From an uncultured Heliomicrobium sp. (GTDB taxonomy: Bacteria; Acidobacteriota; Blastocatellia; RBC074): a stretch of DNA of 48,033 bases. How positions within the stretch are numbered: the first letter of the stretch is position 1; every line of letters starts with the position of its first letter. The stretch spans positions 1 to 48,033 of the forward strand of contig CAYRQB010000004.1 in NCBI GenBank assembly GCA_964426025.1, read 5' to 3'. The notes below the pieces were generated by a model. The model searched no databases and was not told where the DNA came from. It worked only from the letters and a program-made list of their open reading frames with translations. The position numbers and the translations under genes are program-made. This document shows, in pieces, positions 8,829 to 46,362 of the stretch.

Positions 8829-8846
8829 CGGGCGCGACAGGAGATT

Positions 8847-11801: not shown

Positions 11802-11848
11802 ATTGCCAACAGAAAACTTTTGAAAAGGAGATTACGAAAATCAAGGAG

Positions 11849-17760: not shown

Positions 17761-17809
17761 GGGTAATCAGAAATTCCTTTCGAAGCGGAGAGAGTAATCC
17801 TGAACGGGT

Positions 17810-17818
17810 ATTTTACCA
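17810..17818 (-). promoter_or_regulatory. extended -10 promoter candidate (TGGTAAAAT) for treZ-GH57
   Basis: The minus strand reads TGGTAAAAT about 50 nt upstream of the treZ ATG (17760). No good -35 element is seen. Confidence 0.3.
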
Positions 17819-17892
17819 ATCGCGCCAAATATACGTGGCTCGAAGTCAAACGATCTGGCTGAATGTCTGAAGGTCGGGTTTGGATTGATGAG

Positions 17893-19782: not shown

Positions 19783-19864
19783 GATTCGTCGTCTTTGCCT
19801 GATAAATTTCGATAGCGCGCTAAGCCAACCAGAACACGGATTAATCGAAGATCAAAAATCATTC

Positions 19865-19910
19865 GATTCATCTGTGTTCATCCGTGTGAATCAGTGTGCA
19901 TCTGTGGTTT
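19865..19910. repeat. tandem degenerate ~10-nt units (TTCATCTGTG / TTCATCCGTGTG / AATCAGTGTG / CATCTGTGG), REP-like
   Basis: The units are read directly in the mreB-like/mrdA intergenic spacer. Confidence 0.5.
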
Positions 19911-19943
19911 ATGGTTTGTCTCAATGTCTGATGTAAATTGCTT

Positions 19944-30985: not shown

Positions 30986-32209
30986 GTGAATCTGCTTCAA
31001 CATCAGACTGGCCGCGTGGCTCTGTTCACGCTGCTTTATGCCAGCGAAGGCGGTCCCATAGGTTTTATCTGGTGGGCGTTGCCGACGCTGCTTCGCACTG
31101 AAGGCGTCGCCATTGATCGAATCACCGGTTTGACTGCGTTGCTGGTGTTGCCGTGGTCTTTCAAATTTTTGTGGGCGCCGCTGGTTGATTCGTTGGGTTC
31201 GCGGCGATGGGGTTTTCGCATCTGGATAATAGGATCGCAGTTGATGATGGGGCTGACGCTGATCCCGCTCATCCGGCTCGATCCGGCTGAACATTTCGGA
31301 TGGTGGCAGGCGCTGTTGCTGGCTCATGCTTTTTCAGCCGCGACTCAGGATGTGGCCGTGGACGGTCTGGCGGTGAATGTCGTGCCCGCGTCACAACGCG
31401 GAACCATCAACGGCAGCATGCAAGCCGGTATGTTGATCGGGCGAAGCCTGTTTGGCGGAGTCGCCTTGCTGGCGATCAGCAAGCTGGGGCACGCAACCGT
31501 GATGATCGCTTTGATCGTCTGCGTCTGGTCGTCGCTGGTTTTATTGCTGTTTGCCAGAGAGCCTGAACTACCTGAAGAATCGCGAACACGCCTGACGGAC
31601 TTCGCCGCGAATTTGCTGCGCGCGTTCAATCATCGAACGGCCTGGCTGGGATTAGGATTTGCGCTGGTTTCCGCCGCCGCTTTTGAAGCGACGGGTGTTC
31701 TGGCTGGTCCTTACCTGATTGACCACAACGTGTCGAGCGATACCGTCGGATGGTTCTTTGCTCTGCCGGTGGTCGTGGCAACGATTGGCGGCGGATTGAT
31801 CGGCGGCAAACTTTCCGATCGTTGGGGGCGCACACGCTCAGTCGCTATTTTCCTGGCCGGTTTTGTGGCGATGATCCTGGCTCTGGCTGCGACGGATTAT
31901 TTTTTCAATGCAGGGCAGATTACGCTGATGGCGGTTCTGACCGGCATGTATTTCTTCATCGGTTTGTTCACGGCGTCTTCTTACGCGCTGTTTATGGATT
32001 TGACGGATTCAAAAGTTGGCGCAACGCAGTTCAGCGCTTTTATGGCCGCGACCAACGGTTGCGAATCGTGGGCGGGTTGGACGGGCGGTCGAATCGCAGC
32101 CACGTCGGGATATGCCGCAAGCTTCGCTTTGATGAGCATGTTTTCGCTGTTCAGCCTTCTGTTTTTGCGGAAGATAAAAACCACTCAGGTAAAGGTGATC
32201 GAAGAATGA
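30986..32209 (+). CDS. MFS transporter, AmpG-like
   Basis: 407-aa ORF with a GTG start and about 12 TM segments. LPWSFKFLWAPLVD is typical of the AmpG/acetyl-CoA-transporter-like MFS subfamily. Confidence 0.78.
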   Translation: MNLLQHQTGRVALFTLLYASEGGPIGFIWWALPTLLRTEGVAIDRITGLTALLVLPWSFKFLWAPLVDSLGSRRWGFRIWIIGSQLMMGLTLIPLIRLDPAEHFGWWQALLLAHAFSAATQDVAVDGLAVNVVPASQRGTINGSMQAGMLIGRSLFGGVALLAISKLGHATVMIALIVCVWSSLVLLLFAREPELPEESRTRLTDFAANLLRAFNHRTAWLGLGFALVSAAAFEATGVLAGPYLIDHNVSSDTVGWFFALPVVVATIGGGLIGGKLSDRWGRTRSVAIFLAGFVAMILALAATDYFFNAGQITLMAVLTGMYFFIGLFTASSYALFMDLTDSKVGATQFSAFMAATNGCESWAGWTGGRIAATSGYAASFALMSMFSLFSLLFLRKIKTTQVKVIEE

Positions 32210-33198
32210 TCTGGATTCAATTTGCTTTATGTTCTTTGGCAATTGTAATTGCCGGAAGCAAGCTTTCGAAATACGGCGACATCATTGCCGAAAAAACGGG
32301 ATTGGGTAAAACCTGGATAGGAGTTCTGTTGCTGGCGACGGTGACTTCGTTGCCGGAATTGATCACCGGCGCCAGTTCTGTGATCGTTTTCGATCTGCCG
32401 GATATTGCGGCGGGCGGAGTTTTGGGGAGTTGTACATTCAATTTGTTGATCATTGCACTGCTGGACGGTTTGGCCGGGCCTGAACCGGTCGTCACAAAGG
32501 TCAAGCCCGGACAAGTGCTGACGGCGGCTTTCGGAACTTTGCTGCTTGGCCTTGTCGGTATGAGTCTGGCGCTGGGAACGAAAGTCCCGCGAATCGGCTG
32601 GATTGGTGTAGACAGCATTGTCTTCCTGCTGGTTTATGTGATTGCGATGAGGTTGATTTTCCTTTACGAAAAGAAGCGCGCGGCGGAATTCTTCGAAGAG
32701 GTTTTCGAGACTCGCCCCGAAGAGATGACCATGAAGCAGGCGTATTTGCGATACTCTCTGTTTGCTCTGGTCATCATCGGCGCGGCGACATGGTTGCCGT
32801 ATCTGGGAGAAGAGATTGCAAAGATCACCGGTTTGGAACGCAGCTTCGTCGGCAGCATCTTCATTGCCGTTACGACTTCCTTGCCGGAAGTTGTCGTTTC
32901 AATCGCTGCGCTCAGAATCGGAGCGGTTGATCTGGCCTTCGGCAATGTGCTGGGCAGTAATCTTTTCAATATCGCGATCCTGGCATTAAGCGATCTGATG
33001 TACACATCAGGGCCGTTGCTCAATGTGGTTTCGGATTCGCACTTGATTACTTCAATCGCCGCGATTGTCATGACGGCGATAACCGTCATCGGATTAACTT
33101 ACAAAACCAACAGGAAATATATGTATCTGTCGGCTGATGCCTGGGGCATTCTGCTGACCTGGATGACAGCAACCTTTTACTTATACAAATTAGGGTGA
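32206..33198 (+). CDS. sodium/calcium exchanger (CaCA/YrbG-like) family membrane protein
   Basis: The in-frame ATG at 32206 overlaps the MFS stop (ATGA). It has two alpha-repeat motifs (TSLPELITGASS and TSLPEVVVSIAA). The upstream part of ORF 31750-33198 is rejected. Confidence 0.8.
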   Translation: MIWIQFALCSLAIVIAGSKLSKYGDIIAEKTGLGKTWIGVLLLATVTSLPELITGASSVIVFDLPDIAAGGVLGSCTFNLLIIALLDGLAGPEPVVTKVKPGQVLTAAFGTLLLGLVGMSLALGTKVPRIGWIGVDSIVFLLVYVIAMRLIFLYEKKRAAEFFEEVFETRPEEMTMKQAYLRYSLFALVIIGAATWLPYLGEEIAKITGLERSFVGSIFIAVTTSLPEVVVSIAALRIGAVDLAFGNVLGSNLFNIAILALSDLMYTSGPLLNVVSDSHLITSIAAIVMTAITVIGLTYKTNRKYMYLSADAWGILLTWMTATFYLYKLG

Positions 33199-33289
33199 AA
33201 CAGAGGCCTGTCAGGCCAATGGCAAAAGCTAAGGAATGGCAGGGCGATCCGCCGGATTGCCCCGGACGTTTACAAAGGAGGGACAATAA

Positions 33290-34177
33290 TTGGAACGCAT
33301 TCGAGTAGGAACGCTGCAATATTTCATTCGTCCGGTGCAAACCTTCGAACAATTTCGCGATCAGGTGGAATCGCTGGTGGACACGGCTGCTGATTACAAA
33401 TGCCATCTGCTGGTTTTTCCTGAATACTTCACCATTCAGTTGCTGACGCTGGGCAATGTCAAAAGACCGATTCGCGAACAGATTCGCGATCTGGCCAAAC
33501 AGGTTCCGCGCTTCATTGAAATGATGAGCGACATGGCGCGAAGAACTAAACTGTATATTGCCGCCGGAACGATTCCGACGATGGAAAACGGATCCAGCGT
33601 CGTCAACAATCAATGCTTCTTTTTCGGACCGACCGGCGAATACGGTGTGCAGGGCAAAATGCACATGACTCGATTTGAATCCGAAGAGTGGATAATCACG
33701 CCGCATGAAAAGTTGAAAGTGTTCGAGACAAATTTTGGCCGTCTGGCGATTGCCATCTGTTACGACGTGGAATTTCCTGAAATCGCTCGCGCCGCCGCTC
33801 GATGCGGAGCGAACATTCTGATCGTGCCCAGTTGCACCGACGACCGTCAGGGATTTTTCCGCGTGCGTTATTGCGCTCACGCCCGAGCGATTGAAAACCA
33901 GATGTATGTCATTCACTCGCCGACGGTCGGTTCGTTGCCGATGGTTCCGGCGGTTTCGTTGAATTACGGACAGGCGGCGATTCTGACGCCCAGCGATTTC
34001 GCCTTTTCGCGCGACGGAATTCTGGCCGAAGGAAATTTCAATCAGGAGATGATGGTCATCGGCGAACTGAACCTGAAAACGATTGCGGACACGCGAGCAT
34101 CGGGGACGGTTTTGCCGCTGCTGGACAGCAATCGCACGGCGGCGCTGGTGGCACAGCCCGAAGTGGTGAAGGTATGA
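33290..34177 (+). CDS. carbon-nitrogen hydrolase (nitrilase superfamily) protein
   Basis: 295-aa ORF with a TTG start 7 nt after the SD AAAGGAGGG. The catalytic E/K/C context (LLVFPEY ... ICYDVEFPE) is typical of the family. Confidence 0.86.
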   Translation: MERIRVGTLQYFIRPVQTFEQFRDQVESLVDTAADYKCHLLVFPEYFTIQLLTLGNVKRPIREQIRDLAKQVPRFIEMMSDMARRTKLYIAAGTIPTMENGSSVVNNQCFFFGPTGEYGVQGKMHMTRFESEEWIITPHEKLKVFETNFGRLAIAICYDVEFPEIARAAARCGANILIVPSCTDDRQGFFRVRYCAHARAIENQMYVIHSPTVGSLPMVPAVSLNYGQAAILTPSDFAFSRDGILAEGNFNQEMMVIGELNLKTIADTRASGTVLPLLDSNRTAALVAQPEVVKV

Positions 34178-34890
34178 GCGAGCAGAAGACAAATGTAATC
34201 ATCCGCAACACGCGTCCGGAAGATTTTGCGGGAATCATTGAAATGACCGGAACAGTTTATAGGGAATCCGCGCCCTGGTCTGAAGCGCAACTCACCTCTC
34301 ATTTGAAAGTTTTCCCGGAAGGGCAGTTCGTGGCGGTTGATGAAGACGCCAATCGAATTGTCGGAATGGCGGCCAGCTTGATCATCCTCTGGGACGATTA
34401 CCAAATGAATGCAAGCTGGCGCGATTTCACCGACTCTGGAATGTTCACCAATCACGATCCTCAGCGCGGGCGCACGCTTTATGGCGCTGAGGTCATGACG
34501 CATCCGAAATTTCGCGGAGGAGGCATCGGCCAAAAACTTTATCGCGCGCGTCGCGAACTGGTCAGGCGGCTGGGGCTGCTGCGAATTCGCGCCGGAGCGC
34601 GTCTGCGGAATTATCATCGCCACGCCGATCATCTGACCGCCGAAGAATATGTCATTAAGGTGATACGCGGCGAAATTCGCGATCCGACGTTGACCTTCCA
34701 GCTTCGACAGGGGTTTCACGTGCTTGCGGTTGTGCCGAATTACCTTCGCCACGATCCTGAAAGTCTGGGGTACGCGGCGGTGATTGAATGGATCAATGAT
34801 CGCGTCGCCAAACAGCAAGATTACTCCGGACGCAATCCGCGTTTTGCCAAACCGAAAACCGAAGCGACTAAAAGCGGGACTTTGGGATGA
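34174..34890 (+). CDS. GNAT-family N-acetyltransferase
   Basis: 238-aa ORF with an ATGA overlap with the hydrolase gene. It has the acetyl-CoA motif HPKFRGGGIGQKLYRAR. This pairing also occurs as a fused GNAT/C-N hydrolase protein in other bacteria. Confidence 0.84.
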   Translation: MSEQKTNVIIRNTRPEDFAGIIEMTGTVYRESAPWSEAQLTSHLKVFPEGQFVAVDEDANRIVGMAASLIILWDDYQMNASWRDFTDSGMFTNHDPQRGRTLYGAEVMTHPKFRGGGIGQKLYRARRELVRRLGLLRIRAGARLRNYHRHADHLTAEEYVIKVIRGEIRDPTLTFQLRQGFHVLAVVPNYLRHDPESLGYAAVIEWINDRVAKQQDYSGRNPRFAKPKTEATKSGTLG

Positions 34891-36494
34891 ACGAAACTCT
34901 GTTTACGATTACGGTATTTATCACTCTGTTGTTGATTGCCTCCGGCGTGGCGATGGCGACGAAATGGATTCGCGTGCCGTACACGCTGGCGCTGGTGATC
35001 ATCGGACTGGTCATCAGCCCGATGCATTTTCTGCCGGTGGTTCATATTTCGCCGGAACTGATTCTGCTGATCTTCCTGCCGGCGTTGCTGTTTGAAGCGG
35101 CCTGGAATTTGAAGTTCGATCATCTGCGGGAAAACCTTCTGCCGATTCTGACGCTGGCAATCGTCGGCGTTTCCATCGCCGTTGGCGTGATTGGCGCGGT
35201 GCTGCATTACGGCATCGGTATGGCCTGGCCGCCCGCATTGTTGTTCGGCGCGATGATTTCGGCGACCGATCCGGTGTCGGTGCTGGCGCTGTTCAAAAAA
35301 CTCGGAGCGCCGAAGCGGCTGACGACGATCATCGAAGGCGAAAGCCTGTTCAACGACGGCACTGCGGTTGTGGTCTTCCGCATCATTCTGGGCATTGTCA
35401 TCGGGACGACTGCCGGAACGACGGGCGAACTGGCTTTGCATTCATTGCGCGAATTTTCTCTGGTCGTCTTCGGAGGTCTGGCCGTCGGCGCGATCATCGG
35501 CATCATCGCTTCGGTGTTGACTTCTTATTTCGACGATCACCTGTTGGAAATCACGCTGACGACGATTGTCGCTTACGGATCGTTTCTGCTGGCCGAAAGC
35601 ATGCACGTTTCTCCTGTCATCGCCGTCCTGACCGCTGGTTTGATACTTGGCAATTACGGACGACAGCGTGGAATGTCACCGACCACTCAGGTCGCAGTCA
35701 ATTCGTTCTGGGAATACGCGGCCTTTGTCGTCAACTCGCTGGTCTTTCTGCTGATCGGTCTGGAAGTGCAATTGCCAACCCTGCTGGAAAACAAATGGAC
35801 AATCGCCTGGGCGGTCGCAGCAATGCTGGCGGGCAGAATGGTTTCGGTTTACGGTTTGATTCCAATAGCCAATCGGTTTGGCGAACGCATTCCTTTCCGA
35901 TGGCTACACGTTATGTTGTGGGGCGGATTGCGCGGATCGCTTTCGATTGCGCTGGTGCTGAGTCTGCCGAAAGATTTGCCCGGACGCACCGAACTCGTCG
36001 TTCTGATTTTCGGCACTGTGATTTTCAGCTTGCTGGCTCAGGGACTGACGATCTCTCCGCTGATCAAATGGCTGAAATTGACTGCGCTCGATCCGCGAAT
36101 GAAAGAGTATGAATTGCTCCACGGACAAACGCTGGCCGAAGCCGCGGCTGAGGCCGAACTGGACAACATGCGCAATCGAGGCATGGTCACCGAACGCGTT
36201 TACCGGAAACTGCGTGATTCGCTGGAACAAAGCCGCCAGCAGTTGCGAGAGCAGATAGAAAAAATGGATGTCGGAATAGAGGAAATCGAACAACAGCAAA
36301 TTCGCCGCGTCGAGCGCCATTTGATCAACGAGAAAAAAGCGCGGCTGACTTTGCTGTTGCGCGAAGGATTGATTTCGGAATCCGTCAATTTGGAATTGAA
36401 CGAAAAGCTGGATCAACAATTGGCGCAAACGGACGAAGAGATTTCACCGGCGGAGGCCGAATCCGCAACTTCCAGGGGTTCAGCACAGTCTTGA
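34887..36494 (+). CDS. Na+/H+ antiporter, CPA1 (NhaP/YjcE-type) with C-terminal coiled coil
   Basis: 535-aa ORF with an ATGA overlap with the GNAT gene. It has ISATDPVSV and the ESLFNDG (ND) motif. The last ~130 aa are heptad-rich. Confidence 0.88.
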   Translation: MNETLFTITVFITLLLIASGVAMATKWIRVPYTLALVIIGLVISPMHFLPVVHISPELILLIFLPALLFEAAWNLKFDHLRENLLPILTLAIVGVSIAVGVIGAVLHYGIGMAWPPALLFGAMISATDPVSVLALFKKLGAPKRLTTIIEGESLFNDGTAVVVFRIILGIVIGTTAGTTGELALHSLREFSLVVFGGLAVGAIIGIIASVLTSYFDDHLLEITLTTIVAYGSFLLAESMHVSPVIAVLTAGLILGNYGRQRGMSPTTQVAVNSFWEYAAFVVNSLVFLLIGLEVQLPTLLENKWTIAWAVAAMLAGRMVSVYGLIPIANRFGERIPFRWLHVMLWGGLRGSLSIALVLSLPKDLPGRTELVVLIFGTVIFSLLAQGLTISPLIKWLKLTALDPRMKEYELLHGQTLAEAAAEAELDNMRNRGMVTERVYRKLRDSLEQSRQQLREQIEKMDVGIEEIEQQQIRRVERHLINEKKARLTLLLREGLISESVNLELNEKLDQQLAQTDEEISPAEAESATSRGSAQS

Positions 36495-36503
36495 AAAAAA
36501 TCT

Positions 36504-37733
36504 ATGATCACGATTCTGGAACTGTTGGCAATTCTGGTGGTCGGTTATCTGAGCGCGCATTACCTGATAGGGAAGTTGCAGACCCGTTACTTTTTCACGT
36601 CAGGCGTGGAATACATCATTCTGGGCGTGCTGGTCGGGCCGCAGGTGACGAACCTAATGACGCGCGAAGTAGTCGAACAACTGTTGCCGGTGATGAGCCT
36701 GGCGTTGGGTTCCATCGGCTTGATCGCGGGTTTGCAACTGCGCTTTCGCGGCTTATTCGAAGCGCCGCCGGAACATTACCGCGTCGCTTCGATGGAAATG
36801 TTGATCACTTTTCTGTTGGTCGGAGGCGTGTTCGCCGCGCTGTTCTGGTATCTGATGTCGGGCGGTCTGATCGGATCGGACAAATTGATGGCGGTGGCTC
36901 CGGCGGCTTTGGCGTTGGCGACGACCGCCGCCGTTTCGGCTCAACCGGCGATTCGCGGGCTGGAAGAACATTATGGCGCTCAAGGCAAGGTTTCGGATTT
37001 ATTGCAATTCGCCGGTTGGTTCGATTCTCTGCTCGGCATTGTTTTGTTCGGGTTGATGTTTTGTCTTTTTCACACGGGGCAGACCAGCGGCATTCGCCCG
37101 CTGACGCGAACGGAATGGGTGGCCGTCAGTCTGGGTTTTGGCATAGCGCTTGGCATTCTGTTTTATCTCTTCCTTGGACGCGAACAGAGCGCGGAAAAAT
37201 TGCGGTTGGCGTTGATCGGCATTGTCATTTTTTCCAGCGGAACCGCTTATTACCTGCGGTTGTCTCCGTTGTTCATCAATCTGGTTCTGGGCGTGATGCT
37301 GGCCAACACTTCGCGGATCAGGCGGCGATTGCTGGAAGTTCTGCAACCTTTCGAACATCCGCTTTACGTCGTGCTTCTGGTTTTTGCCGGAGCCGCCTGG
37401 GAAATGAAATACCATCACCGATGGTTTTGGATTGCGGCTCTGGTGGCGGGTTATCTGCTGCTGCGTTCGGCGGGAAAATATCTTGGCGGTTATCTTTCCT
37501 GGAAAACTTCCGAAAAGCCAGTTGCGGTTTTGCGAAATGTCGGCGGCGGATTGTTGTCGCAGGGAGTGGTGGCCGTCGCCATGCTTGTCAATTATCAGCA
37601 GGTTTATCAAAACCAGTTCACGCAGATTGTCGCCGCTTGCGTGTTGGTGTCGGTTGTCATCAATGAATTCGTCAGCCCCAAATTGCTGAAAGACCTGCTG
37701 ACCGGAGCGCGCGAAATCGAGGTGACCGGATGA
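36504..37733 (+). CDS. cation:proton antiporter family protein (CPA2-like, no soluble domain)
   Basis: 409-aa polytopic ORF starting 9 nt after the previous stop. It has a Na_H-exchanger-like layout (SGVEYIILGVLVGPQ ...). The alternative-frame ORF 36491-37666 is rejected. Confidence 0.8.
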   Translation: MITILELLAILVVGYLSAHYLIGKLQTRYFFTSGVEYIILGVLVGPQVTNLMTREVVEQLLPVMSLALGSIGLIAGLQLRFRGLFEAPPEHYRVASMEMLITFLLVGGVFAALFWYLMSGGLIGSDKLMAVAPAALALATTAAVSAQPAIRGLEEHYGAQGKVSDLLQFAGWFDSLLGIVLFGLMFCLFHTGQTSGIRPLTRTEWVAVSLGFGIALGILFYLFLGREQSAEKLRLALIGIVIFSSGTAYYLRLSPLFINLVLGVMLANTSRIRRRLLEVLQPFEHPLYVVLLVFAGAAWEMKYHHRWFWIAALVAGYLLLRSAGKYLGGYLSWKTSEKPVAVLRNVGGGLLSQGVVAVAMLVNYQQVYQNQFTQIVAACVLVSVVINEFVSPKLLKDLLTGAREIEVTG

Positions 37734-37749
37734 AGGATGGAGAAAATGC

Positions 37750-40041
37750 ATGCGCAGATTAGTCATCGTTGCCCTGCTGTTTTTGCTGATGTCCGCCCTG
37801 CCATATTTGCAACTGGCGGAAGATTCGGCTTTTCATCCGAAATCGCTGGCCGCGCTCGGATTCGTTTTGCTGGCGGCGTACACGCTGGGCGAAATCGCCG
37901 GTAAATTCAAACTGCCGAAAATCACCGGTTACATCGTCACCGGATTGTTGTTTGGTCCGTATGTCATCAACCTTTTTTCCGTCGGAGTGGTCGAAGACAT
38001 CAAACTGATCAACAGCCTGGCAGTGGCGCTGATTGCGCTGACTGCCGGAGCCGAAATGAAGCTGGACAGTTTGAAGGCTGTCGCTCGCAGTCTGGGTTGG
38101 ATTACTCTGGTCAAAGGCTCGCTGATTCTGATTGCCGTCACGGCCACAGTATTTGCCGCTCGTCCGCTGATTCCTTTTCTGGCTGGCGCGTCCGCTCCGT
38201 TGGTGTTGTCGGTGGGAATGATTTTCGGAGTTTTGGCCGTCGGCACTTCGCCTGCGGCCACGATTGCGGTCATCAACGAAACGCAATCGCGCGGCAGGCT
38301 CAGCGACATCACGCTGGGCGTGGCTGTGGCGAAAGACGTGGTGATGGTTGTGCTGCTGGCGTTGGCGATTTCACTGGCCAAACTTTTTTCGACCGCCGGA
38401 GCCAGCTTCGATTCGTCGGTTCTGCTGACGGTCGGCGAAGAGCTTTTGTTGTCGGTCACGGTTGGCGCGCTGCTCGGCGTCATTATCATCGCCTACATTC
38501 GATTCGTTCACGCCGAAATGTGGCTGTTCATCATCGCGATGATCTTTCTCAACACCTTCATCGCCGAACGTTTTCATCTGGAAGCTCTGCTTACTTTCAT
38601 CGTCGCCGGATTCGTCGTCCAGAATTTTTCAAAGTACGGTGACGAATTCATTCATCCGGTCGAAGAGGTTTCGCTGCCGGTTTATGTCGTTTTCTTTTCG
38701 ATTGCAGGGGCGGGCCTGGATTTGAACGCTCTGCGTCAGGTATGGCTGGTTGCGTTGATTCTGGTGGCGGTGCGCATCGTCGCCATCTTTGCCGGAACGC
38801 GAATCGCGGTGACGCTGGCAAAAGAAAGCTCCGCCATCAAAAGCAACGCCTGGCTCAGTTTTATTTCTCAGGCTGGCGTGGTGTTGGGGCTTTCCACCAT
38901 AGTTGAAAACAACCTGCCCCAGCTTGGCGGCGAAATCAAAACCGTCGTGCTGGGAACCATCGGTCTGAATCTGATTCTTGGGCCGATCACGTTCAAGGCC
39001 GCTCTGACGCGAGCCGGAGAAACAATTGAAAAACGCGAAGCCGCATCAGCAATGCAACAGGTTGAATCCGCTGATCAGGATGAAAGCGACGTCGGGTTGG
39101 CAAGGCTTGCGGAATCCGGATGGCCCGAACCGCACTTTGAATCCGCCGAACTGAACGAAGCTGCGCTGACTGTTCGTTCGCGGTTGGTGGCTTTGCAAGA
39201 GCAGGGCGAACGAAACCTGGTCTCGCCCCAGGCGGATCAATGGCGTGATTTCATCGTTCGCATGCGCGAACAGACACTGCAATCTTTCAATCATCTGAGC
39301 CAGGAATCAGAAAGCTTCGCCATCGAAAAGGCGCAGAAACTGATTCACTGCGTCAGGAAAAATCGCATTGCCTTTTCCGAATGGACGCGAAAGGAAACAG
39401 AAGCAATGGCGAAATCCGACGAGCAGGCGAAAATTGAGGACTCATTCAGAAAGTTGTTCGACGGTCTGGCGGCGATTCACAAAAAATTGCCCGATAGCAT
39501 AGTTGTAGTTCAGGAAGATGAAAGATTCGAAGCTTCGATTGACGACAGACTTTACATTCGCTTCGTCAAAATGCTGAAACGAAACCGCAGATCGTTGCGC
39601 CGATTGTTCAACGTGAAATCGGAATTGACGCGCGATGTGCTGTTCACACAATTGGCGAAATATTACTGCGCCGGATTGTTGCCGCAGCGATTGAATCGGA
39701 TGGCGAATCTGGTTTACGCGCAACCGCTGGCCGCGCTGCGAAGCAGTCGCCGCAGTTTTGATTTCATTGACCGGCAATATGAAACGATCATCTCCATGTT
39801 GGAAGAAAATAGCGGCGAAGGAATAACTGCTGAAAAATTGGGCGGCGTGATTCGGGAATCAATCGAGTCATTGCAGAAAAAGTTTGAATCCGCGCTGGCC
39901 GAACAGGAACAGTTTCGCGAAGCAGTCAAAAAGGAAATGACCACTACGTTCTCAGGAGTTTATGGCGAAATGCTCAAAGCATTGTCGTTGGCGGGAACTT
40001 TCGAATTGCCGCGTCGCCGTTTTCGCCTGCCGAAAGTTTGA
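37750..40041 (+). CDS. cation:proton antiporter (CPA2-like) with ~350-aa uncharacterised helical cytoplasmic tail
   Basis: 763-aa ORF with the SD GGAGAA 6 nt upstream. It has a hydrophobic N-half (PKITGYIVTGLLFGPYV ...). From about nt 38995 it becomes a hydrophilic, helix-prone region with no GxGxxG. Confidence 0.8.
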   Translation: MRRLVIVALLFLLMSALPYLQLAEDSAFHPKSLAALGFVLLAAYTLGEIAGKFKLPKITGYIVTGLLFGPYVINLFSVGVVEDIKLINSLAVALIALTAGAEMKLDSLKAVARSLGWITLVKGSLILIAVTATVFAARPLIPFLAGASAPLVLSVGMIFGVLAVGTSPAATIAVINETQSRGRLSDITLGVAVAKDVVMVVLLALAISLAKLFSTAGASFDSSVLLTVGEELLLSVTVGALLGVIIIAYIRFVHAEMWLFIIAMIFLNTFIAERFHLEALLTFIVAGFVVQNFSKYGDEFIHPVEEVSLPVYVVFFSIAGAGLDLNALRQVWLVALILVAVRIVAIFAGTRIAVTLAKESSAIKSNAWLSFISQAGVVLGLSTIVENNLPQLGGEIKTVVLGTIGLNLILGPITFKAALTRAGETIEKREAASAMQQVESADQDESDVGLARLAESGWPEPHFESAELNEAALTVRSRLVALQEQGERNLVSPQADQWRDFIVRMREQTLQSFNHLSQESESFAIEKAQKLIHCVRKNRIAFSEWTRKETEAMAKSDEQAKIEDSFRKLFDGLAAIHKKLPDSIVVVQEDERFEASIDDRLYIRFVKMLKRNRRSLRRLFNVKSELTRDVLFTQLAKYYCAGLLPQRLNRMANLVYAQPLAALRSSRRSFDFIDRQYETIISMLEENSGEGITAEKLGGVIRESIESLQKKFESALAEQEQFREAVKKEMTTTFSGVYGEMLKALSLAGTFELPRRRFRLPKV

Positions 40042-40064
40042 TTCAAACGATATTCAAACCATGA

Positions 40065-42299
40065 TTGGCAGTCGAGGCAATCGCACATGGTTTTCCGATG
40101 CATGAAAAAACTCAACAATTGATCGCGGAATCCGGCGAAGTCTGGAAGAGTTACGCCACAGGTCTGGCCGACGGATACAAGCAGCATCTGGACGCGATAA
40201 GGTTGATGGATCAGGTCAGCCTGTCTGCGGACGAAACGGTTTTCAACGTCCTGAAGAGCATTGACGCGAGTCTGACTTCCGGCCTGGTTGCCGCCAAAGA
40301 GCAATGCGAAAAAAGCCGCGCGGCGCTGGTTTCCGCATTTGAATCTCAGGCCGGTTCGGACGCCGTCAAAGAAATAATCGTCAAAGAGCGCGACGAGACT
40401 TGCGATTTCATTCGCCAACAGACTTTGCCGCAATTGTCGCGAATGCGCGAAAGTCGCCCGCTCAACGCCTTGATTGAAGTCATGCTGGAGCGGTTTTCGG
40501 CATTGGCCAACGAACTTCCTGAAAGGTATCGGATACTTGACGAAAAGGGACTGGAACAGATTTCGGATTACGGTCAAATGCCGTCGGAACCCAAGTTGAA
40601 AAGCGTGCCGATGCGCTCGATTGCGCGTTCGTGGCTGGAAACGAAAATCGCGCGCGATCTGGGCGAAGTCAATCGAATGATGTTTGAACAGGTTGACGGT
40701 TCGATCCGCACGGTCAACGAAGCCAGCCAGATCATCAGTTTCAATTTGCGAGTCGCGGCCAGCGAATGTGAACGCTCGGCGCAACAGCCGCAGGCTTCGC
40801 CCGATCTTTCGCATGCCAGAGAACTGGCACTCAACGGATTGCAGATGGCCGTCAACCGCCTGGATTCGGCGCTGGAAAAACTGGCGCGTCTGAAGGAACA
40901 GGTTTACGAACAGATACTATCGCGCGTGGACGTGCGCATGCGCGAGGTTGAGGCTGTGGCCTTTCAACAGGCCGGAGCTGAAGAACAGGCCGCGCTCAGG
41001 CAGAAATTGCTGATCGCCCGCGCCGGGCATTTATTCGATCATTCGCGTAAACAGATTGCTGAAGGATGGCGTCATCTGCACGAACGTTTCGCGCCGCTCA
41101 GCCGCGAAGTGGTCAGGGATTTGAAATCCACGCTGGGATTGCAGCGGTTTTCGCCCGCTGAAGTTCTGTCAATTTACGATCAAGCCAAACTGGATCAGGA
41201 AGCGCTTGGCCGTTTGCCGTTCATTTACCGAAAACTTTACGACATCAGCCCGCTGGAATCGGCTGATTTGCTGGTCGCTCGCGAAGAAGAAATGAGTTTG
41301 ATTGAAACCGCCAGAGACCGCTGGCAACAGGGAATGCCCTGCGCAGTGGCTGTGATCGGCGAACTGGGCAGCGGCAAAACCAGCCTGATCAATGCGGCGA
41401 TTGAACAAACTCTGAAAGGTTTTCGAATCTACAGCAAACGATTTACTCAGACGGCAACTGATGAATCATTGCTGGCGCGCGAACTGGCGCGAATGCTCAG
41501 ATTGCCGCGAGTGAAAACTTTGGACGAATTGCAACCGCGCCTGCTTGAATTGGGACAGCGCGCGGTGATCGTTCTGGAAGACGCGCATCAACTTTACCAG
41601 CGCGAAGTCGGCGGATTTGCGACGCTGAAAAAGCTGCTCCTGCTGATTGCGCGCACCAGCCATCAGGTTTTATGGATCATCTCCATGCGCAAATACGCCT
41701 GGAGTTATCTGAACATGATTTTGCGCATTGCCGACAGCTTTACTTTCGTCGTCAACACCGAAAATCTTGACGGCAACGAACTGGAACAGGTGATTCTGGC
41801 TCGCCATCGCGTCAGCGGTTTCGGTCTGCGTTTCATGCCGGATGAAATCATGCAACAAAGACGAAAATTCCGGCAGAGCGATGACGACGAACAACAGGAA
41901 ATGTTAAGCGAGGCGTACTTCGAATCGCTGGCCAGAGCTTCGGAAGGCAACATTCTTTCCGCCATCTTTTATTGGCTGAAATCGCTGGCCGAATTGAGTG
42001 GCAACGATTTGATCGTCAACCCGCTTAAACCTCTGCGATTCGATTTTCTGCGCGAAATGCCTGTGACTCATTTGCTGACTCTGAGCCTGATCATCCAGCA
42101 CGGCAATCTGACGGCGGTCGAACACGCGCGGATTCTTCGCACAGAAGTTGACACCAGTTTGTCCGTGCTGTCGCATTTGATGAACATCAATCTGTTGACC
42201 AGCGAAACGAATGAAAAAGGCGAGGAAAGGTTTGCCATCAGTCGAGTGGTTTACCTGCCGCTGACCAAAGAACTGAAGGCCGCGAACATTCTGCCGTGA
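40065..42299 (+). CDS. soluble AAA+ (AAA_16/ORC-Cdc6/STAND-like) ATPase with long helical N-region and wHTH-like C-terminus
   Basis: 744-aa ORF starting at TTG 40065 or ATG 40098. It has Walker A GELGSGKTS (41358-41384) and Walker B VIVLEDAH (41565-41588). It has no TM segments. Confidence 0.8.
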   Translation: MAVEAIAHGFPMHEKTQQLIAESGEVWKSYATGLADGYKQHLDAIRLMDQVSLSADETVFNVLKSIDASLTSGLVAAKEQCEKSRAALVSAFESQAGSDAVKEIIVKERDETCDFIRQQTLPQLSRMRESRPLNALIEVMLERFSALANELPERYRILDEKGLEQISDYGQMPSEPKLKSVPMRSIARSWLETKIARDLGEVNRMMFEQVDGSIRTVNEASQIISFNLRVAASECERSAQQPQASPDLSHARELALNGLQMAVNRLDSALEKLARLKEQVYEQILSRVDVRMREVEAVAFQQAGAEEQAALRQKLLIARAGHLFDHSRKQIAEGWRHLHERFAPLSREVVRDLKSTLGLQRFSPAEVLSIYDQAKLDQEALGRLPFIYRKLYDISPLESADLLVAREEEMSLIETARDRWQQGMPCAVAVIGELGSGKTSLINAAIEQTLKGFRIYSKRFTQTATDESLLARELARMLRLPRVKTLDELQPRLLELGQRAVIVLEDAHQLYQREVGGFATLKKLLLLIARTSHQVLWIISMRKYAWSYLNMILRIADSFTFVVNTENLDGNELEQVILARHRVSGFGLRFMPDEIMQQRRKFRQSDDDEQQEMLSEAYFESLARASEGNILSAIFYWLKSLAELSGNDLIVNPLKPLRFDFLREMPVTHLLTLSLIIQHGNLTAVEHARILRTEVDTSLSVLSHLMNINLLTSETNEKGEERFAISRVVYLPLTKELKAANILP

Positions 42300-43630
42300 A
42301 TCAGGTGAATTCAATGTCGAACGGGTCGAAGAAAAATTTGATTCTGATCTGCGTTATGGCGGTTATCGCGCTGGCGTTGACGCCCTGTGTTGTCTTGGCT
42401 CAATCGAATCCTCCTGAGCGTGAACAGGAAGAATCAGAACAGTCGCCGCAATCGAAGGAACAATCGAAGGAGAAAGCAGAGCCGCAGGAGAAGGGAAAAC
42501 CCACTCCGACGCCACAAGCGAAGAAGCCGGTTCAGGGCGAACCTGTTCCCACGCCCAGGAAACCCGCGCAGGCGCAATCCGAACCAAAGCAGGGCGAGAA
42601 ACCGCCGCAAGCGACGCCGACGCCATCGCCGACGCCCACTGCGACTCCGGCGGCGGAGAAGACAGATGAAGCATCCGTTCCGCAGACTTCGCCAACGCCT
42701 GCGCCAACCGCCACCGAACAACCGACGCCGGTTAAGAGTCCTGAGCAAGCGGCGTCTCCGCAACCGACTCCATCGCTTGCAATCGCGCCTGTGCAGGAAT
42801 CGCAACCCGCGGGCGACGAACCCGGACAAACGTCTGCGAGCCTGCGGCACGAACTGGACAAGCTGGCGCAATCGTTCACCTTCTGGAAAATAGTTCTATC
42901 GTTGCTGGTCTTAACGCTCGGTTATCTGATCAATCGAGTCATCGTTTTGTTTGCGGCGCGCATCGGCAAACAGAAATCGGTTCAGGCCGAACGCCTGCGC
43001 CGAATGACGCCTTTCATCAGTTTCGGATTGTGGTTTTTAGTGGTTGGCCTGGTGACGGGAATTTTCGTGCAATCAATGCTGGCCACTGTCGCGTTGATGG
43101 CAATAGTCATCATCGCCGCAGGAGTCGCTTCGCAGCCGTTGTTGCGGGATTTGATCGGCGGCATAGTGATTCTGTTCGAGCGTCCGTTTCAAATCGGCGA
43201 CCGCGTCACGATCGGTCCTCATCAGGGCGAAGTGAAAGTCATAGGCTTGCGTTCTTTTCACGTTTCGAACGGCGATGGATCGCTGGTTGCGGTTCCCAAT
43301 TCGGAGGTGTTACGTCAAGCCGTCGTCAATGCCAGCCTGGGGCGAATGGAAGGTTTGGTGACGACCGAACTGCCGTTGCCAGCCGGATGCAATCTGGCCG
43401 AGGCCAAACAGATCGCCTTCGAAGCCGCCGCCGTTTCGCCCTATATCTCCATCCATCAGCCTGTCGAGGTTCTGGTTGATGTTTTGAAGTCGGGCGATTC
43501 AAACGCCCGGCTGATCGTTCGGTCTCATGTTTTCGATGTGCAATACGAGCGTGAATTGCGCAGCGATACGATTGAACGCGCACAGGAGGGATTCAATAAA
43601 TTGCGCTCAGCGAATGAAGAGAAACGATAA
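42296..43630 (+). CDS. MscS-family mechanosensitive channel with signal peptide and ~150-aa Pro/Thr/Glu/Lys-rich N-terminal tract
   Basis: 444-aa ORF. GTG 42296 overlaps the upstream stop; the alternative ATG 42314 follows AGGTG. The MscS core is RDLIGGIVILFERPFQIGDRV. Confidence 0.85.
   Translation: MNQVNSMSNGSKKNLILICVMAVIALALTPCVVLAQSNPPEREQEESEQSPQSKEQSKEKAEPQEKGKPTPTPQAKKPVQGEPVPTPRKPAQAQSEPKQGEKPPQATPTPSPTPTATPAAEKTDEASVPQTSPTPAPTATEQPTPVKSPEQAASPQPTPSLAIAPVQESQPAGDEPGQTSASLRHELDKLAQSFTFWKIVLSLLVLTLGYLINRVIVLFAARIGKQKSVQAERLRRMTPFISFGLWFLVVGLVTGIFVQSMLATVALMAIVIIAAGVASQPLLRDLIGGIVILFERPFQIGDRVTIGPHQGEVKVIGLRSFHVSNGDGSLVAVPNSEVLRQAVVNASLGRMEGLVTTELPLPAGCNLAEAKQIAFEAAAVSPYISIHQPVEVLVDVLKSGDSNARLIVRSHVFDVQYERELRSDTIERAQEGFNKLRSANEEKR
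42401..42844 (+). repeat. low-complexity Pro/Thr/Glu/Lys/Gln-rich coding tract
   Basis: About 148 codons follow the predicted signal-peptide cleavage site (VLA-QS). Five of the six reading frames carry a listed ORF here, as expected for compositionally biased DNA. Confidence 0.7.
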
Positions 43631-43660
43631 CAGTAATGACAGACCATAGGAGAAGACAAA

Positions 43661-44548
43661 ATGGATTTATCGCAGTTGATTGACAGGGTAGTAACGATTC
43701 TGCGTTACCCGATGATGAAACTTGGGGACACGGAAATCACTTTGATGGTTTTGATTCAATTTCTGATTCTCCTGCTGCTGTTGGTGTATTTCACCGGCAG
43801 ATTGAAAAAGCTTCTGGTTGAACGATTGCTTGTTCGCACGAAACTGGATGTCAGCGCGCGACAGGCCATCGGTTCGATCACGCGTTACCTGGCCTTGCTG
43901 GTCGGATTGCTGATCATTCTGCAATCGGTTGGAATCAATCTGACGACCTTGAATGTGATTGCCGGCGCGGTCGGCATCGGCGTCGGTTTCGGTTTGCAGA
44001 ATATCGCCAGCAATTTCATCAGCGGGCTGATCATACTTTTTGAACGGCCAATCAAGATCGGCGACCGCATCGTGGTCGGCGATGTTGACGGCGATGTGGT
44101 TGAAATCGGCGCTCGCAGCACAATCGTCGTGACAAACAACAACATTGCGGTGATTGTCCCCAATTCAAATTTCATTTCCGAAACCGTCATCAACTGGAAA
44201 TACACTGATTCCAAAGTCAGATTTGAAATCCCTGTCGGCGTTTCTTACGGCAGCGACGTCCGTCTGGTTGAAAAACTGCTGCTGGAAGCGGCCAGGGAAA
44301 ATCCTGACGTGCTTGATGATCCGAAACCGGATGTCTGTTTTCGCGAATTCGGCGACAGCAGTTTGAATTTCAGCCTGCGCGTTTGGAATAAAAATCATGT
44401 TCATAGGAAACTGGTTTTGTACAGTTCATTGAATTTCGCCATCTTCGACAAATTCAAACAGCATGGCATCGAAATACCATTCCCGCAGCGTGATCTGCAC
44501 ATTCGCAGCGGGGAACTGAAAATCAAAAGAGCGACAACTTCGGCTTGA
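43661..44548 (+). CDS. mechanosensitive ion channel, MscS family
   Basis: 295-aa ORF with the SD AGGAGA 7 nt upstream. It has [20 protein letters not shown] and the conserved C-terminal [11 protein letters not shown]. Confidence 0.88.
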
Positions 44549-46362
44549 ATATGCCTGATTTCACTTTGACTGCTCTCACATTCAAGGCTGTCATGACGGT
44601 GATCATTTTGATTGCCGCCGTCTACAGTTTTATCGCCGAAAAACTGCCGCCGGACGTGACGGCTTTGCTGGCAATGCTGGCGTTGTTGTTGACAGGCATT
44701 CTGCAACCTTCGGAAGCATTCGCCGGTTTCAGTCATCCGGCCACCATCTCCGTCGCCGCGGTGCTGGTTCTGTCGGCGGGCATCGAACGCACTGGCGCGC
44801 TTTCATTTCTGGCGCGCCGCATACTTGCTCCCATCGGACATTCCGAACTTCTGTTGACGGTCGTCATTATGGTGGCGATTGGCGGAATGTCTGCTTTCAT
44901 CAACAACACAGCAGCCGTCGCGATTTTCATTCCCGTCGTGTTGGATGTCTGTCGCCGGACAGGAGCAAGTCCCGGACGCGTGTTGATGCCGATGTCGCAC
45001 GCCGCGACGATTGGCGGCATGTGCACACTGATCGGAACTTCAACCAATCTGGTTGCTCACGAATACGCGCGAAGCCAGGGCTTGCCGGGCTTTTCAATGT
45101 TTGAACTCGGCCAGGTCGGTTTTCCCATGCTGTTGGCCGGTTTCGCTTACATGCTGCTGGTCGGGCGATGGTTTCTGCCGCGCAGCGACGGGACGCAGCC
45201 GGAAGCTTTTGAATCAAGCGAACCGTATCTGGCTGAGTTGATCGTCAAACCAGGTTCGTCCTGGATCGGACGTGAAGTCAGCGCCGAAAGTTTTGAGCGT
45301 GATTTCGATCTGGAGCTTCTGGATTTGAGCCGCGTCGGTCGCAGCCTCAGTCTGAGCGGGCCTCATCCATTGCTTATTTCCGGCGATTCTTTACGCGTGC
45401 GCGGGCCGCTCAACAAGGTGATGGCGCTGGCAAATCTGGGAGAGCTTGAGCTTCACCGCCCTGAAGACGATAAGAAAGACGGTCAAAAGACTGAAGGGGA
45501 GAATAAGTTGTTGGCGGAAGTCGTGGTGCTGAGTTCTTCAAACCTGATTGGGCAAACGCTCAAGCAAATGCGCTTTGCCGAACGGTTCAACACAGTTGTG
45601 CTGGCATTGCGCCGCCGTGGAACCGCCACCGGACGGCCTTCAACAACTCCGCTCAGAGCCGGTGACGTTCTGGCTGTGGAAACCAGCATGCAATCGCTGA
45701 AGGCATTGGATGACGCGCTGGGATTTTTGGTCATCGGCACGCCGGAAGTTTCCGTGCCGCGAACCGGAAAACTGGTGATCACGATTTTGACGCTGGTGGG
45801 CGTCATCGCGCTTGTGTCGTTCGGCGTTATGCCCATCATCACCGCCGCCACTGCCGGTTGTGCAGTGCTGATGCTGACGGGTTGTTTGCGTCCGCGCGAA
45901 GCTTATCAGGCGATTGATCTGAGCATAGTTTTTCTGCTGGCCGGTTCGTTGGCGCTTGGCGCGGCGCTGGAACGATCAGGTTTGACGACTGTGCTGGCAG
46001 ATTCGCTGCTGAAGCTGCAGGACATCGCCAGCCCCTTCGTTATTCTGGCGGGCTTTTTCCTGGCGGCGGTCATCATCTCCGAATTTATGTCCAACAGCGG
46101 AACCGTGCCGCTGCTGGCGCCGATTGCGATTACGATTGCGACAAAATTGAATTTGAATCCAACGGCGCTGATTGCGGCGATCACCTTCGGTTCCACCGCA
46201 GCCTTCGCCATGCCAATCGGATATCAAACCAGCCTGATGATTTACGGACCAGGCGGTTATCGCTTCAAGGACTTTGTGCGAATGGGTTTAGTCCTTGATC
46301 TGTTGTTGGCCATTCTGGCTCTCTGGTTGATTCCTAAATTCTGGCCACTGACGCTTTCATAA
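44545..46362 (+). CDS. SLC13/DASS-family permease with two central TrkA-C (RCK_C) domains
   Basis: 605-aa ORF. TTG 44545 overlaps the upstream stop; the alternative start is ATG 44551. Polytopic halves flank two soluble modules of the type L.E..V...S...G.TL....F......V.L...R. Confidence 0.87.

Follow-up and report, generated by a model that had tools for sequence, protein, structure and literature searches.

A family of predicted AAA+ proteins encoded beside a dedicated MscS-like channel and repeatedly fused to secondary transporters, as seen from a split gene pair in an acidobacterial contig

Background

What does a soluble ATPase do when its gene stands between that of a cation/proton exchanger with a long helical tail and that of an MscS-like channel? 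The question is raised by a 48,033-nucleotide (nt) stretch of contig CAYRQB010000004.1 (assembly GCA_964426025.1, an uncultured Heliomicrobium sp. placed in the Acidobacteriota by GTDB), referred to here as the window. Two consecutive open reading frames (ORFs) on its forward strand are at issue: ORF1, of 763 amino acids (aa), and ORF2, an ATPase gene that ends where the channel gene MscS-A begins. An initial annotation had placed them at 37750-40041 and 40065-42299, where both are indeed present, and had read them as a CPA2 exchanger and its separate nucleotide-dependent regulator. The accepted picture of MscS channels is one of valves that membrane tension gates, and that of CPA2 exchangers is one of regulation by RCK/KTN domains and small ligands. 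We know of no MscS channel with an ATPase partner, and of no AAA+ or STAND ATPase fused to a CPA exchanger; our literature searches found no paper that connects such an ATPase to MscS or to a CPA2 fusion, and none describing the present family.

We report that ORF2 and MscS-A represent a conserved two-gene module, in which a protein made of two helical regions (HR1 and HR2), an AAA+ domain and a winged helix is paired with a dedicated MscS-like channel. The module is repeatedly fused N-terminally to secondary transporters, above all to a CPA exchanger of a K-D type. In the window, the fused gene has been broken in two. The coordinates of all features are collected in Table 1.

Results

To establish what accompanies the ATPase, we surveyed one genome per species, re-analysing at least 46 loci with a simple ORF caller of our own and with phmmer; the survey counts and taxa given here hold among the matches listed. 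Members of the family were confirmed at 45 of the 46 loci, and 43 were assessable after two that were cut by a contig end had been set aside. An MscS-like gene was found directly downstream of the ATPase gene in 41 of these 43 and directly upstream in one (L017), so that a single locus (L016), which was checked, had none. An archaeal candidate (L056, E-value (E) 6e-5) was left out, as phmmer did not confirm it. The loci came from Terriglobia, Bryobacterales, Vicinamibacteria, Blastocatellales, Gemmatimonadales and Longimicrobiales, and also from Desulfuromonadales/Geoalkalibacter, a gammaproteobacterium, two metagenome-assembled genomes (MAGs) labelled Clostridia and an Acidimicrobiia MAG. In 13 of 13 other contexts, the window included, an MscS-like gene likewise adjoins the ATPase gene. 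A gene with the Pfam domain MS_channel_2nd follows it directly in L001/2, L003, L004, L007, L008, L009, L010, L057 (in two modules), L058, L059 and L060, and the following gene in L005/6 was recognised as MscS-like by phmmer (E 3e-38). Overall, the two genes are adjacent in 55 of 56 contexts, and remain so where sequence identity has fallen to about 20%.

The two genes are also tightly spaced, mostly at -4 to +31 nt, with a longer called gap in L001/L002, L004 and L058. The overlap of the ORF2 stop with the MscS start, pointed out in the initial annotation, is real for the GTG start of MscS-A (GTGA, 42296-42299), although the ATG at 42314 is an alternative start for the channel gene. When the flanking ORFs of 50 loci were clustered, only the ATPase and the MscS-A-type families recurred. 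The conserved gene linkage that the initial annotation had asked for among ATPase homologues is there, but its subject is different: the constant partner of the ATPase is the MscS-like gene, not CPA2, and the view of the ATPase as primarily a regulator of a CPA2 exchanger is not supported. An exchanger domain was found by phmmer in just 26 of the 185 family proteins retrieved, a set that is the top of a ranking and not a random sample.

The family is large, comprising 2083 clusters at 50% identity in an exhaustive representative search at E<=1e-30, and has no dedicated Pfam or NCBIfam model. At least one carrier is in culture, Tunturiibacter psychrotolerans X4BP1 (L040). In L008 and L060, TrkA and TrkH genes lie immediately upstream of the module, and other annotated neighbours include extra MscS paralogues, CitMHS/TrkA_C permeases, further exchangers and CNNM. 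L057 carries, three genes downstream of its first module, a second and paralogous one (16453-20067) consisting of a 917-aa AAA_16 protein, a 280-aa MscS and another MscS. As L057 shows, one genome can carry the split form that is linked to CPA2 together with the soluble form that is standard in the family. The window ends before the equivalent position on the forward strand is reached, and a FAD-oxidoreductase-like ORF follows there on the reverse strand.

The product of MscS-A is a true MscS relative. Its residues 282-347 match MS_channel_2nd with 74 bits (cut-off 20.2), and its PDB sequence matches are chains of MscM, MscK and MscS (E 6e-13 to 1e-9). The protein proceeds from a signal-peptide-like start through a stretch of about 170 aa rich in Pro, Glu, Lys, Gln and Thr to membrane helices and the beta-domain. 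MS_channel_1st and MS_channel_3rd gave no match to this subtype in any Pfam-annotated context; because Pfam detects the beta-domain alone, the family-linked MscS genes are taken to form a distinct subtype. These linked genes match the window's 42296-43630 far better than they match its canonical second MscS. The low-complexity stretch (42296-42870, aa 1-190) was seen only in the CPA2-linked clade, where the MscS proteins have 414-452 aa as against 270-300 aa elsewhere. A PADLOC match of MscS-A to PD-T4-6 was rejected as noise from this low-complexity N-terminus.

The second result concerns the relation of ORF1 to ORF2. They are not an exchanger and an independently encoded regulator, as the initial annotation supposed, but the halves of what was once one gene, encoding exchanger, HR1, HR2 and an AAA+ domain with its lid and winged helix. 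Homologues of ORF2 come in three forms. The first is window-like, with 731-739 aa. The second has 1051-1125 aa, and its additional 320-390 N-terminal residues are the exchanger tail; here the ...AGTFELPRRRFR motif that ends ORF1 continues directly into the ...EKTQQEI... that begins ORF2. The third holds exchanger, tail and ATPase in one chain of 1475-1817 aa; in other Acidobacteriota such chains measure 1480-1690 aa. Across the fission point, fused homologues read ...FELPRRRFRHSRSLMREKTQQ..., and HR1 is fused straight to HR2 in P0013, P0019, P0022, P0024, P0025 and P0031-P0038. The first five of these are HR1-ATPase fusions that lack the membrane domain, and in P0013 a vestige of the last exchanger helix remains with the fused tail and ATPase.

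The direction of the change is indicated by L059, the locus of the fused protein P0031 (1509 aa, 58% identical to ORF2). The genes there stand in the order CN_hydrolase, short CPA exchanger, fused gene, MscS, MscS and CitMHS, as they do in the window, and because the fused gene sits in this identical order, the window arrangement is a gene fission. A sequencing frameshift was considered as the cause of the split and excluded. The same split is present in an independently assembled 80% relative (L057), where the gap is 101 nt long and unlike that of the window in sequence and the ATG-CAT/CAC-GAA-AAA start is conserved; the gene calls of four relatives at 79-88% identity give products of 733-739 aa; and the gaps between the two genes are unequal in length. 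L058 has an ORF of 331 aa, without a Pfam match and separate from the 731-aa ATPase gene that it directly precedes, at the HR1 position of the syntenic L001. Taken together, the arrangements in the window, L057, L058, L059 and P0013 mark the HR1-HR2 linker as a recurrent breakpoint, the 331-aa ORF of L058 being a candidate HR1 by its position.

The transporter attached to the module is not always the same. The proteins fused to CPA2 were not cleanly monophyletic in a crude neighbour-joining tree, and a single CPA2 fusion event is unsupported. P0042 (L009, 8001-13094) is fused to an AA_permease-type transporter according to Pfam on its product, and P0043 carries the same precomputed Pfam label; the two have 1697-1707 aa. 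P0145 (1817 aa) has a CPA domain with an inserted CarboxypepD_reg-like segment. P0030 (L007, 8001-11552, 1183 aa) has an MscK-like coiled-coil and membrane region and a degenerate, dead P-loop. An MscS gene lies downstream of both P0042 and P0030. The link of the ATPase to ion transport, proposed in the initial annotation, is supported by the fusions to CPA2 and to an AA_permease-type transporter and by TrkA and TrkH as neighbours.

The break falls at a structural boundary. A profile of HR1 (34 tails) aligned by hhalign to one of HR2 (84 N-terminal regions) gave a probability of 97.3% and an E of 2.3e-11 over 281 columns. With either profile reversed as a control, E rose to about 0.01, and the signal is for this reason not compositional. 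In the AlphaFold model of P0013, the two regions have matching helix-hairpin-helix patterns, and the common form of the family, of about 920 aa, is also built of two HR-type halves. HR1 and HR2 are homologous tandem repeats, with the gene break exactly in the linker between them. Characterised domains of some other function were looked for in both, at the prompting of the initial annotation, and none matched in Pfam, in PDB sequence searches or in a Foldseek search with HR2; no Pfam or NCBIfam model spans either region.

The membrane half of ORF1, first annotated as CPA2-like, is of the CPA type, and the view that its tail is free of a KTN/RCK domain is upheld. Residues 44-419 match Na_H_Exchanger (PF00999) with 94.3 bits against a cut-off of 26.2 (E 9e-27), by which ORF1 is assigned to the CPA superfamily. 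Against TIGR00932, the NCBIfam model for Kef-type CPA2, it scored 44.6 bits, under the curated cut-off of 238.3, and because that cut-off is not reached we treat ORF1 as related to CPA2 but of a divergent subfamily. No TrkA_N, KTN or RCK match was found in ORF1 with Pfam at E<=0.01, and no Pfam match of any kind in aa 420-763. The ion-binding helix pair, DD in CPA2 and ND in CPA1, presumably corresponds to K195-D196 (38332-38337) as judged from the sequence pattern. ORF1 would then lack the canonical acidic pair and have K-D at the presumed ion-binding site, as does its subfamily (K in 24 and D in 22 of 27 aligned sequences). This hints at an altered ion coupling or stoichiometry.

The tail that follows was compared with the L057 orthologue and with the P0013 model. 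The linker is only 24% identical to L057, with a ratio of nonsynonymous to synonymous substitution rates (dN/dS) of 0.5, and the equivalent segment of the model has low predicted local distance difference test scores (pLDDT). HR1 itself appears in the model as a long bundle of helices that includes a hairpin of two strands, at a pLDDT of about 85-94. The hairpin tip (39625-39735, ORF1 aa ~626-662, DDRLYIRFVKMLKRNRRSLRRLFNVKSELTRDVLF) is strongly basic and KRxxR-rich in the window and in fused homologues, and the equivalent tip of HR2 is not basic. The basic tip could be a putative membrane- or channel-contacting element. In the same comparison, the exchanger domain is 90% identical with a dN/dS of 0.07, and dN/dS is 0.27 for HR1, 0.12 for HR2 and 0.12 for the AAA+ domain with the winged helix. 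As all four domains are under purifying selection, ORF1 and ORF2 are real genes and not chance ORFs.

For ORF2, the start had been given as uncertain, and it most likely lies farther downstream. The TTG at 40065 (744 aa) was rejected in favour of the ATG at 40098 (MHEKTQQ..., 733 aa), because the latter is the database gene call (P0001) and is kept in the 80% relative, in which the sequence upstream of it is not. The N-terminal region, HR2, was modelled with AlphaFold (window aa 1-391, pLDDT 80) as long helices with a hairpin of strands E144-147 and E167-170. Foldseek against the PDB returned nothing at E<=1e-3 for HR2; the top entry was the bacterial dynamin pair 5owv_C (1.1e-3, template modelling score (TM) 0.36), followed by ClyA-type bundles. 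Homology to bacterial dynamin stalks, ClyA-type toxins or BAR domains was rejected, as these are generic long-helix similarities (TM <=0.36). Between HR2 and the AAA+ domain lies the linear motif L-P-x-I-Y-R-[RK]-L-[FY], whose positions P374, Y377 and L380 do not vary in alignments A1 and A2, even at identities as low as about 20%.

By sequence, the ATPase domain is recognised at the margin: aa 403-535 (counted from the TTG) match AAA_22 with 28.8 bits (cut-off 27) and AAA_16 with 31.4 bits (cut-off 32.6), and PDB sequence searches with ORF1, ORF2 and a family profile gave marginal P-loop matches only, with none for HR1 or HR2. Its fold was judged from the AlphaFold model of P0013 (64% identical to ORF2; 30 sequences; pLDDT 82; predicted TM score (pTM) 0.51). 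The model has two successive helical bundles, each with a two-strand hairpin, followed by an alpha/beta P-loop domain, a helical lid (residues 915-1000) and a winged helix of helix-helix-helix-hairpin topology (residues 1005-1089). The top Foldseek matches were the Cdc6/Orc1 chains 7jgr_G, 7tji_I, 2qby_A, 2v1u_A and 1fnn_A, with E from 1.5e-8 to 6e-7, a TM (target) of 0.39-0.51 and a sequence identity of 12-15%. Their alignments span 386-420 columns, as long as entire Cdc6/Orc1 chains with their winged helix. The archaeal Walker-type ATPase PAB2304 (2qen) followed at 1.6e-6 and Apaf-1 at about 4e-6, Sr35 was also matched, and AAA+ proteins of the Clp and NSF types ranked far lower than Cdc6/Orc1. 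Weak matches were found to TIGR02928 in 8 of 30 members, to nSTAND1/3/5, NACHT and BrxC_BrxD in some members, and to MarR_2 (Pfam) in P0030 and one other. The model thus predicts a three-part Orc1/Cdc6-like ATPase module of AAA+ base, helical lid and winged helix, in agreement with the AAA_16/ORC-Cdc6/STAND-like ATPase with a winged helix that had been proposed from the letters of the window.

Both Walker motifs lie where they were first reported, and they are largely kept in the family. Among 183 aligned members (744-aa numbering), conservation was 97% for R406, 97-100% for G432, G435 and G437, 91% for T439, 97% for the Walker B glutamate E505 and 96% for R513, eight residues after Walker B. 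The lid pair is nearly without exception, with R580 in 183 of 183 (100%) and H581 in 179 of 183 (98%). The Walker A lysine K438 is more variable, being Lys in 74%, Arg in 14% and Leu, His or others in the remaining 12%. Its changes span whole subclades, often together with E-N or E-H in place of the E-D of Walker B. The non-Lys variants fall mainly into soluble subclades with proteins of 1000-1120 aa, and Lys is kept in 22 of the 26 CPA2-fused forms. In the non-Lys subclades, nucleotide is probably bound but not hydrolysed, or the proteins are inert paralogues.

Table 1. Genes, domains and motifs at the locus, with positions in the window
Feature	Position	Strand	Basis or remark
Na_Ca_ex	32203-33198	+	Pfam
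ORF; L057 counterpart is CN_hydrolase	33290-34177	+	
ORF; L057 counterpart is acetyltransferase	34174-34890	+	
CPA1-like exchanger	34887-36494	+	
Short CPA-type exchanger paralogue, 409 aa, tail-less	36504-37733	+	Pfam Na_H_Exchanger, 44 bits
ORF1, CPA exchanger with HR1 tail, 763 aa	37750-40041	+	
CPA-type (Na_H_Exchanger) membrane domain, ORF1 aa 1-425	37750-39024	+	Pfam PF00999
Variable hydrophilic linker, ORF1 aa 426-455	39025-39114	+	L057 comparison
HR1 (tail), ORF1 aa 456-763	39115-40041	+	Ends with the conserved ...AGTFELPRRRFR motif and the stop codon
Fission point, 56-nt non-coding gap	40042-40097	+	Replaces the 5-10 residue HR1-HR2 linker of fused homologues
ORF2, AAA+ ATPase	40065 (TTG) or 40098 (ATG) to 42299	+	
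HR2, ORF2 aa 1-346 (733-aa numbering)	40098-41135	+	AlphaFold model
Linear motif just N-terminal of AAA+	41214-41240	+	Alignments
AAA+ alpha/beta base with [GA]-R-E motif (R395), Walker A and Walker B	41262-41765	+	AAA_22, AAA_16
Walker A, GELGSGKTS	41358-41384	+	
Walker B, VIVLEDAH	41565-41588	+	
AAA+ lid, invariant R569-H570 (733-aa numbering; 41802-41807)	41772-42029	+	
C-terminal winged helix, then stop codon	42042-42299	+	
MscS-A, dedicated MscS-like channel, 444 aa	42296-43630	+	Pfam MS_channel_2nd
Canonical MscS, 295 aa	43661-44548	+	Pfam
CitMHS/SLC13-type permease, two TrkA_C domains, 605 aa	44545-46362	+	Pfam

The module is part of a run of consecutive forward-strand genes (32203-46362) separated by very short gaps according to the ORF list and Pfam. 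A scan for promoter and terminator consensus sequences at 30.5-47 kb gave counts equal to those in shuffled sequence and is uninformative on the limits of an operon. The short CPA paralogue, of 409-410 aa, immediately precedes the tailed or fused gene in all close contexts, with orthologues in L057 (6365-7594), L059 (6724-7953) and L010 (6710-7942), and one lies nearby in L008; it is an accessory gene outside the universal core, and may be a heterodimer partner for the tailed exchanger. The canonical MscS and the CitMHS/TrkA_C permease are clade-specific companions, which also lie 3' of the module in L001, L057, L058 and L059 and not in distant loci. Farther upstream, at 6491-17760, the window holds a third MscS gene (6491-7555), GlgC (7548-8828), three alpha-amylase-family genes and a GH57/DUF3536 gene. 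One of the alpha-amylase-family genes has CBM48 and DUF3459 domains and resembles a trehalose-pathway enzyme. Together these may form a cluster for osmolytes or for glycogen and trehalose, not far from the ion-transport genes, and would fit compatible-solute metabolism.

Discussion

The reading that we favour, at even confidence for and against, is that the AAA+ protein is a nucleotide-dependent switch subunit of its dedicated MscS-like channel, which in the window's clade would be tethered through HR1 and HR2 to a CPA2 exchanger and would serve ion and osmotic homeostasis. The AAA+ module would bind ATP, probably hydrolyse it, and change its conformation or oligomeric state. The HR1-HR2 stalk would relay this state to the membrane partners, the primary target being the cytoplasmic face of the co-encoded channel. 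In the window's clade, the same switch would also be held on the CPA2-type exchanger, covalently in fused relatives and, in the window, by non-covalent re-association, the HR1 of the exchanger recruiting the HR2-ATPase. Cation/proton exchange and solute release could in this way be coordinated with the nucleotide or ionic state, with consequences for K+, pH and osmotic homeostasis. That the exchanger tail and the ATPase N-region form a docking pair was already proposed in the initial annotation. The two do belong together, being contiguous in homologues and homologous as repeats; their physical contact, like those between ATPase and channel and between ATPase and exchanger, the direction of control and the physiological role, is what we infer from the sequences.

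Several points weigh against this reading. The P0013 model has a pTM of only 0.51. The winged helix may bind DNA, as in Orc1/Cdc6. The tight synteny is also compatible with an assembly factor, or with a sensor and an effector paired for conflict. As about 26% of members have R, L, H or another residue in place of the Walker A lysine, hydrolysis cannot be essential across the whole family; this partial loss suits a switch or scaffold better than a motor. Finally, most of the loci are MAGs, and the gene calls of the survey come from a simple ORF caller.

A bolder version would make the HR-HR-AAA+ protein a stoichiometric, nucleotide-driven gate, an ATP-dependent oligomer docked under the heptameric MscS cage that in the window's clade would physically couple the valve to a cation/proton antiporter, as one ion-homeostasis machine widespread in soil Acidobacteriota. 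We put this forward as a tentative extension that is itself rather doubtful.

Among other explanations, the one that survives best, unlikely as it is, is a conflict or abortive-infection module, in which a STAND/ORC-like NTPase would sense an invader and open the MscS-like channel, with or without the exchanger, so that ion gradients collapse and the cell is killed or arrested. Defence systems typically pair a STAND-like NTPase with an effector that perturbs the membrane, as two-gene cassettes in variable neighbourhoods, and here, too, only two genes recur; the weak nSTAND, NACHT and BrxC_BrxD matches and a Phage_integrase-family gene about 4.5 kb from the L003 module point the same way. However, searches of PADLOC-DB v2 with ORF1, ORF2 and P0013 gave no match, and relatives of the family were absent from 2.9 million viral contigs of IMG/VR and 72,556 plasmids of PLSDB; the distribution is chromosomal and non-mobile. 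Where neighbours are annotated, they serve housekeeping or ion transport (TrkA/TrkH, further MscS genes, CitMHS and CPA exchangers), the fusion partners are secondary transporters (CPA2, AA_permease) and not known effectors, synteny is kept across relatives at 58-88% identity, and the ATPase lacks a C-terminal sensor repeat array.

The winged helix raises a second possibility, that of a transcription regulator, tethered to the membrane when fused, which would bind DNA and control the adjacent channel and transporter genes upon an ionic signal. The domain resembles the DNA-binding domain of Orc1/Cdc6 and has the weak MarR_2 matches, and AAA_16-type NTPases with HTH domains, such as those of the MalT/LAL family, are transcription activators. 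Yet the overlap or near-overlap of the ATPase stop with the MscS start implies that the two are translated in step, as a regulator and its target usually are not, and the winged helix of a fused form would be anchored to a 12-helix transporter some 1000 residues away. In STAND and AAA+ proteins, moreover, the winged helix is often an intramolecular latch. We consider this explanation decidedly unlikely.

Strict co-encoding and translational coupling would also be expected of an assembly or quality-control factor that aids the folding, oligomerisation, insertion or turnover of the heptameric MscS-like channel, and perhaps of the exchanger, without gating it. AAA+ proteins commonly remodel protein complexes. 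The predicted fold is nevertheless that of an initiator/STAND-type switch and not of a Clp/FtsH-type unfoldase with pore loops, as the low Foldseek ranks of Clp and NSF indicate; a quarter of the members are without the Walker A lysine; and a permanent link to a transporter is easier to reconcile with a stable subunit than with a chaperone that acts transiently. Such a role strikes us as improbable. A fortuitous adjacency of exchanger, ATPase and MscS genes that have no functional relation is effectively refuted by the fusions in many lineages and by the persistence of the adjacency at low sequence identity.

We therefore return to the switch subunit and compare it with known systems. Kef-type CPA2 exchangers (KefC/KefF, KefB/KefG), KhtTU and CpaA are the closest in design, each with a CPA exchanger, a long cytoplasmic C-terminal extension and a co-encoded soluble protein expected to control transport, and they share the context of K+ homeostasis, for which TrkA/TrkH near the module in relatives also speaks. 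The window exchanger differs in having no KTN/RCK domain, in its K-D pair and in its score below the TIGR00932 cut-off. Its soluble partner is predicted to be an ORC/Cdc6-like AAA+ protein rather than a flavodoxin-like KefF/G or an RCK protein, and is the other half of the same ancestral polypeptide. Orc1/Cdc6 and the archaeal PAB2304/ATPase_2 proteins share with ORF2 the AAA+ base, lid and winged helix (Foldseek 1.5e-8 to 1e-6) and a G/A-R-E motif before Walker A. The module differs from Orc1/Cdc6 by its non-replication context, about 700 residues of N-terminal helical repeats, transporter fusions, MscS pairing and an identity of only 12-15%; the fusions and the pairing argue against a role in replication initiation.

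The STAND NTPases (Apaf-1, NLRs, MalT, bacterial Avs and nSTAND) are likewise switch-type P-loop NTPases with a helical lid and winged helix. ORF2, however, ends at the winged helix, with no TPR, WD40 or LRR sensor (no Pfam matches to repeat families) and no known effector domain, and the invariant lid R-H suggests AAA+-like features. On the channel side, MscK, the bCNG channels with a cyclic-nucleotide domain and the MscM/YbdG-type channels combine an MscS-type pore with control beyond membrane tension, as is proposed here, but in the present family it is an AAA+ protein, encoded separately and translated together with the channel, that would add this control. TrkH-TrkA, KtrAB and the KATP channel Kir6/SUR are alike in concept, a cytoplasmic nucleotide-binding subunit passing the ATP/ADP state to an ion pathway, whereas their folds (RCK rings or ABC modules as against AAA+) and channel families are unrelated. 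To our knowledge the module has no described counterpart as a system, and its function is proposed from comparative genomics only.

Conclusions

If the proposed role is correct, there would be an unrecognised energy- or nucleotide-dependent layer of control over MscS channels and CPA2 exchangers, and an initiator-type AAA+ module would have been recruited to membrane transport and not to DNA. Under the bolder version, the family would include the first ATP-controlled member of the mechanosensitive-channel superfamily. The fission in the window provides a natural two-piece version of the system, exchanger-HR1 and HR2-ATPase, which is handy for interaction tests. Acidobacteriota and other phyla of soil and sediment, whose physiology is poorly known, are where the family is concentrated, and these organisms face wet-dry and ionic shocks.

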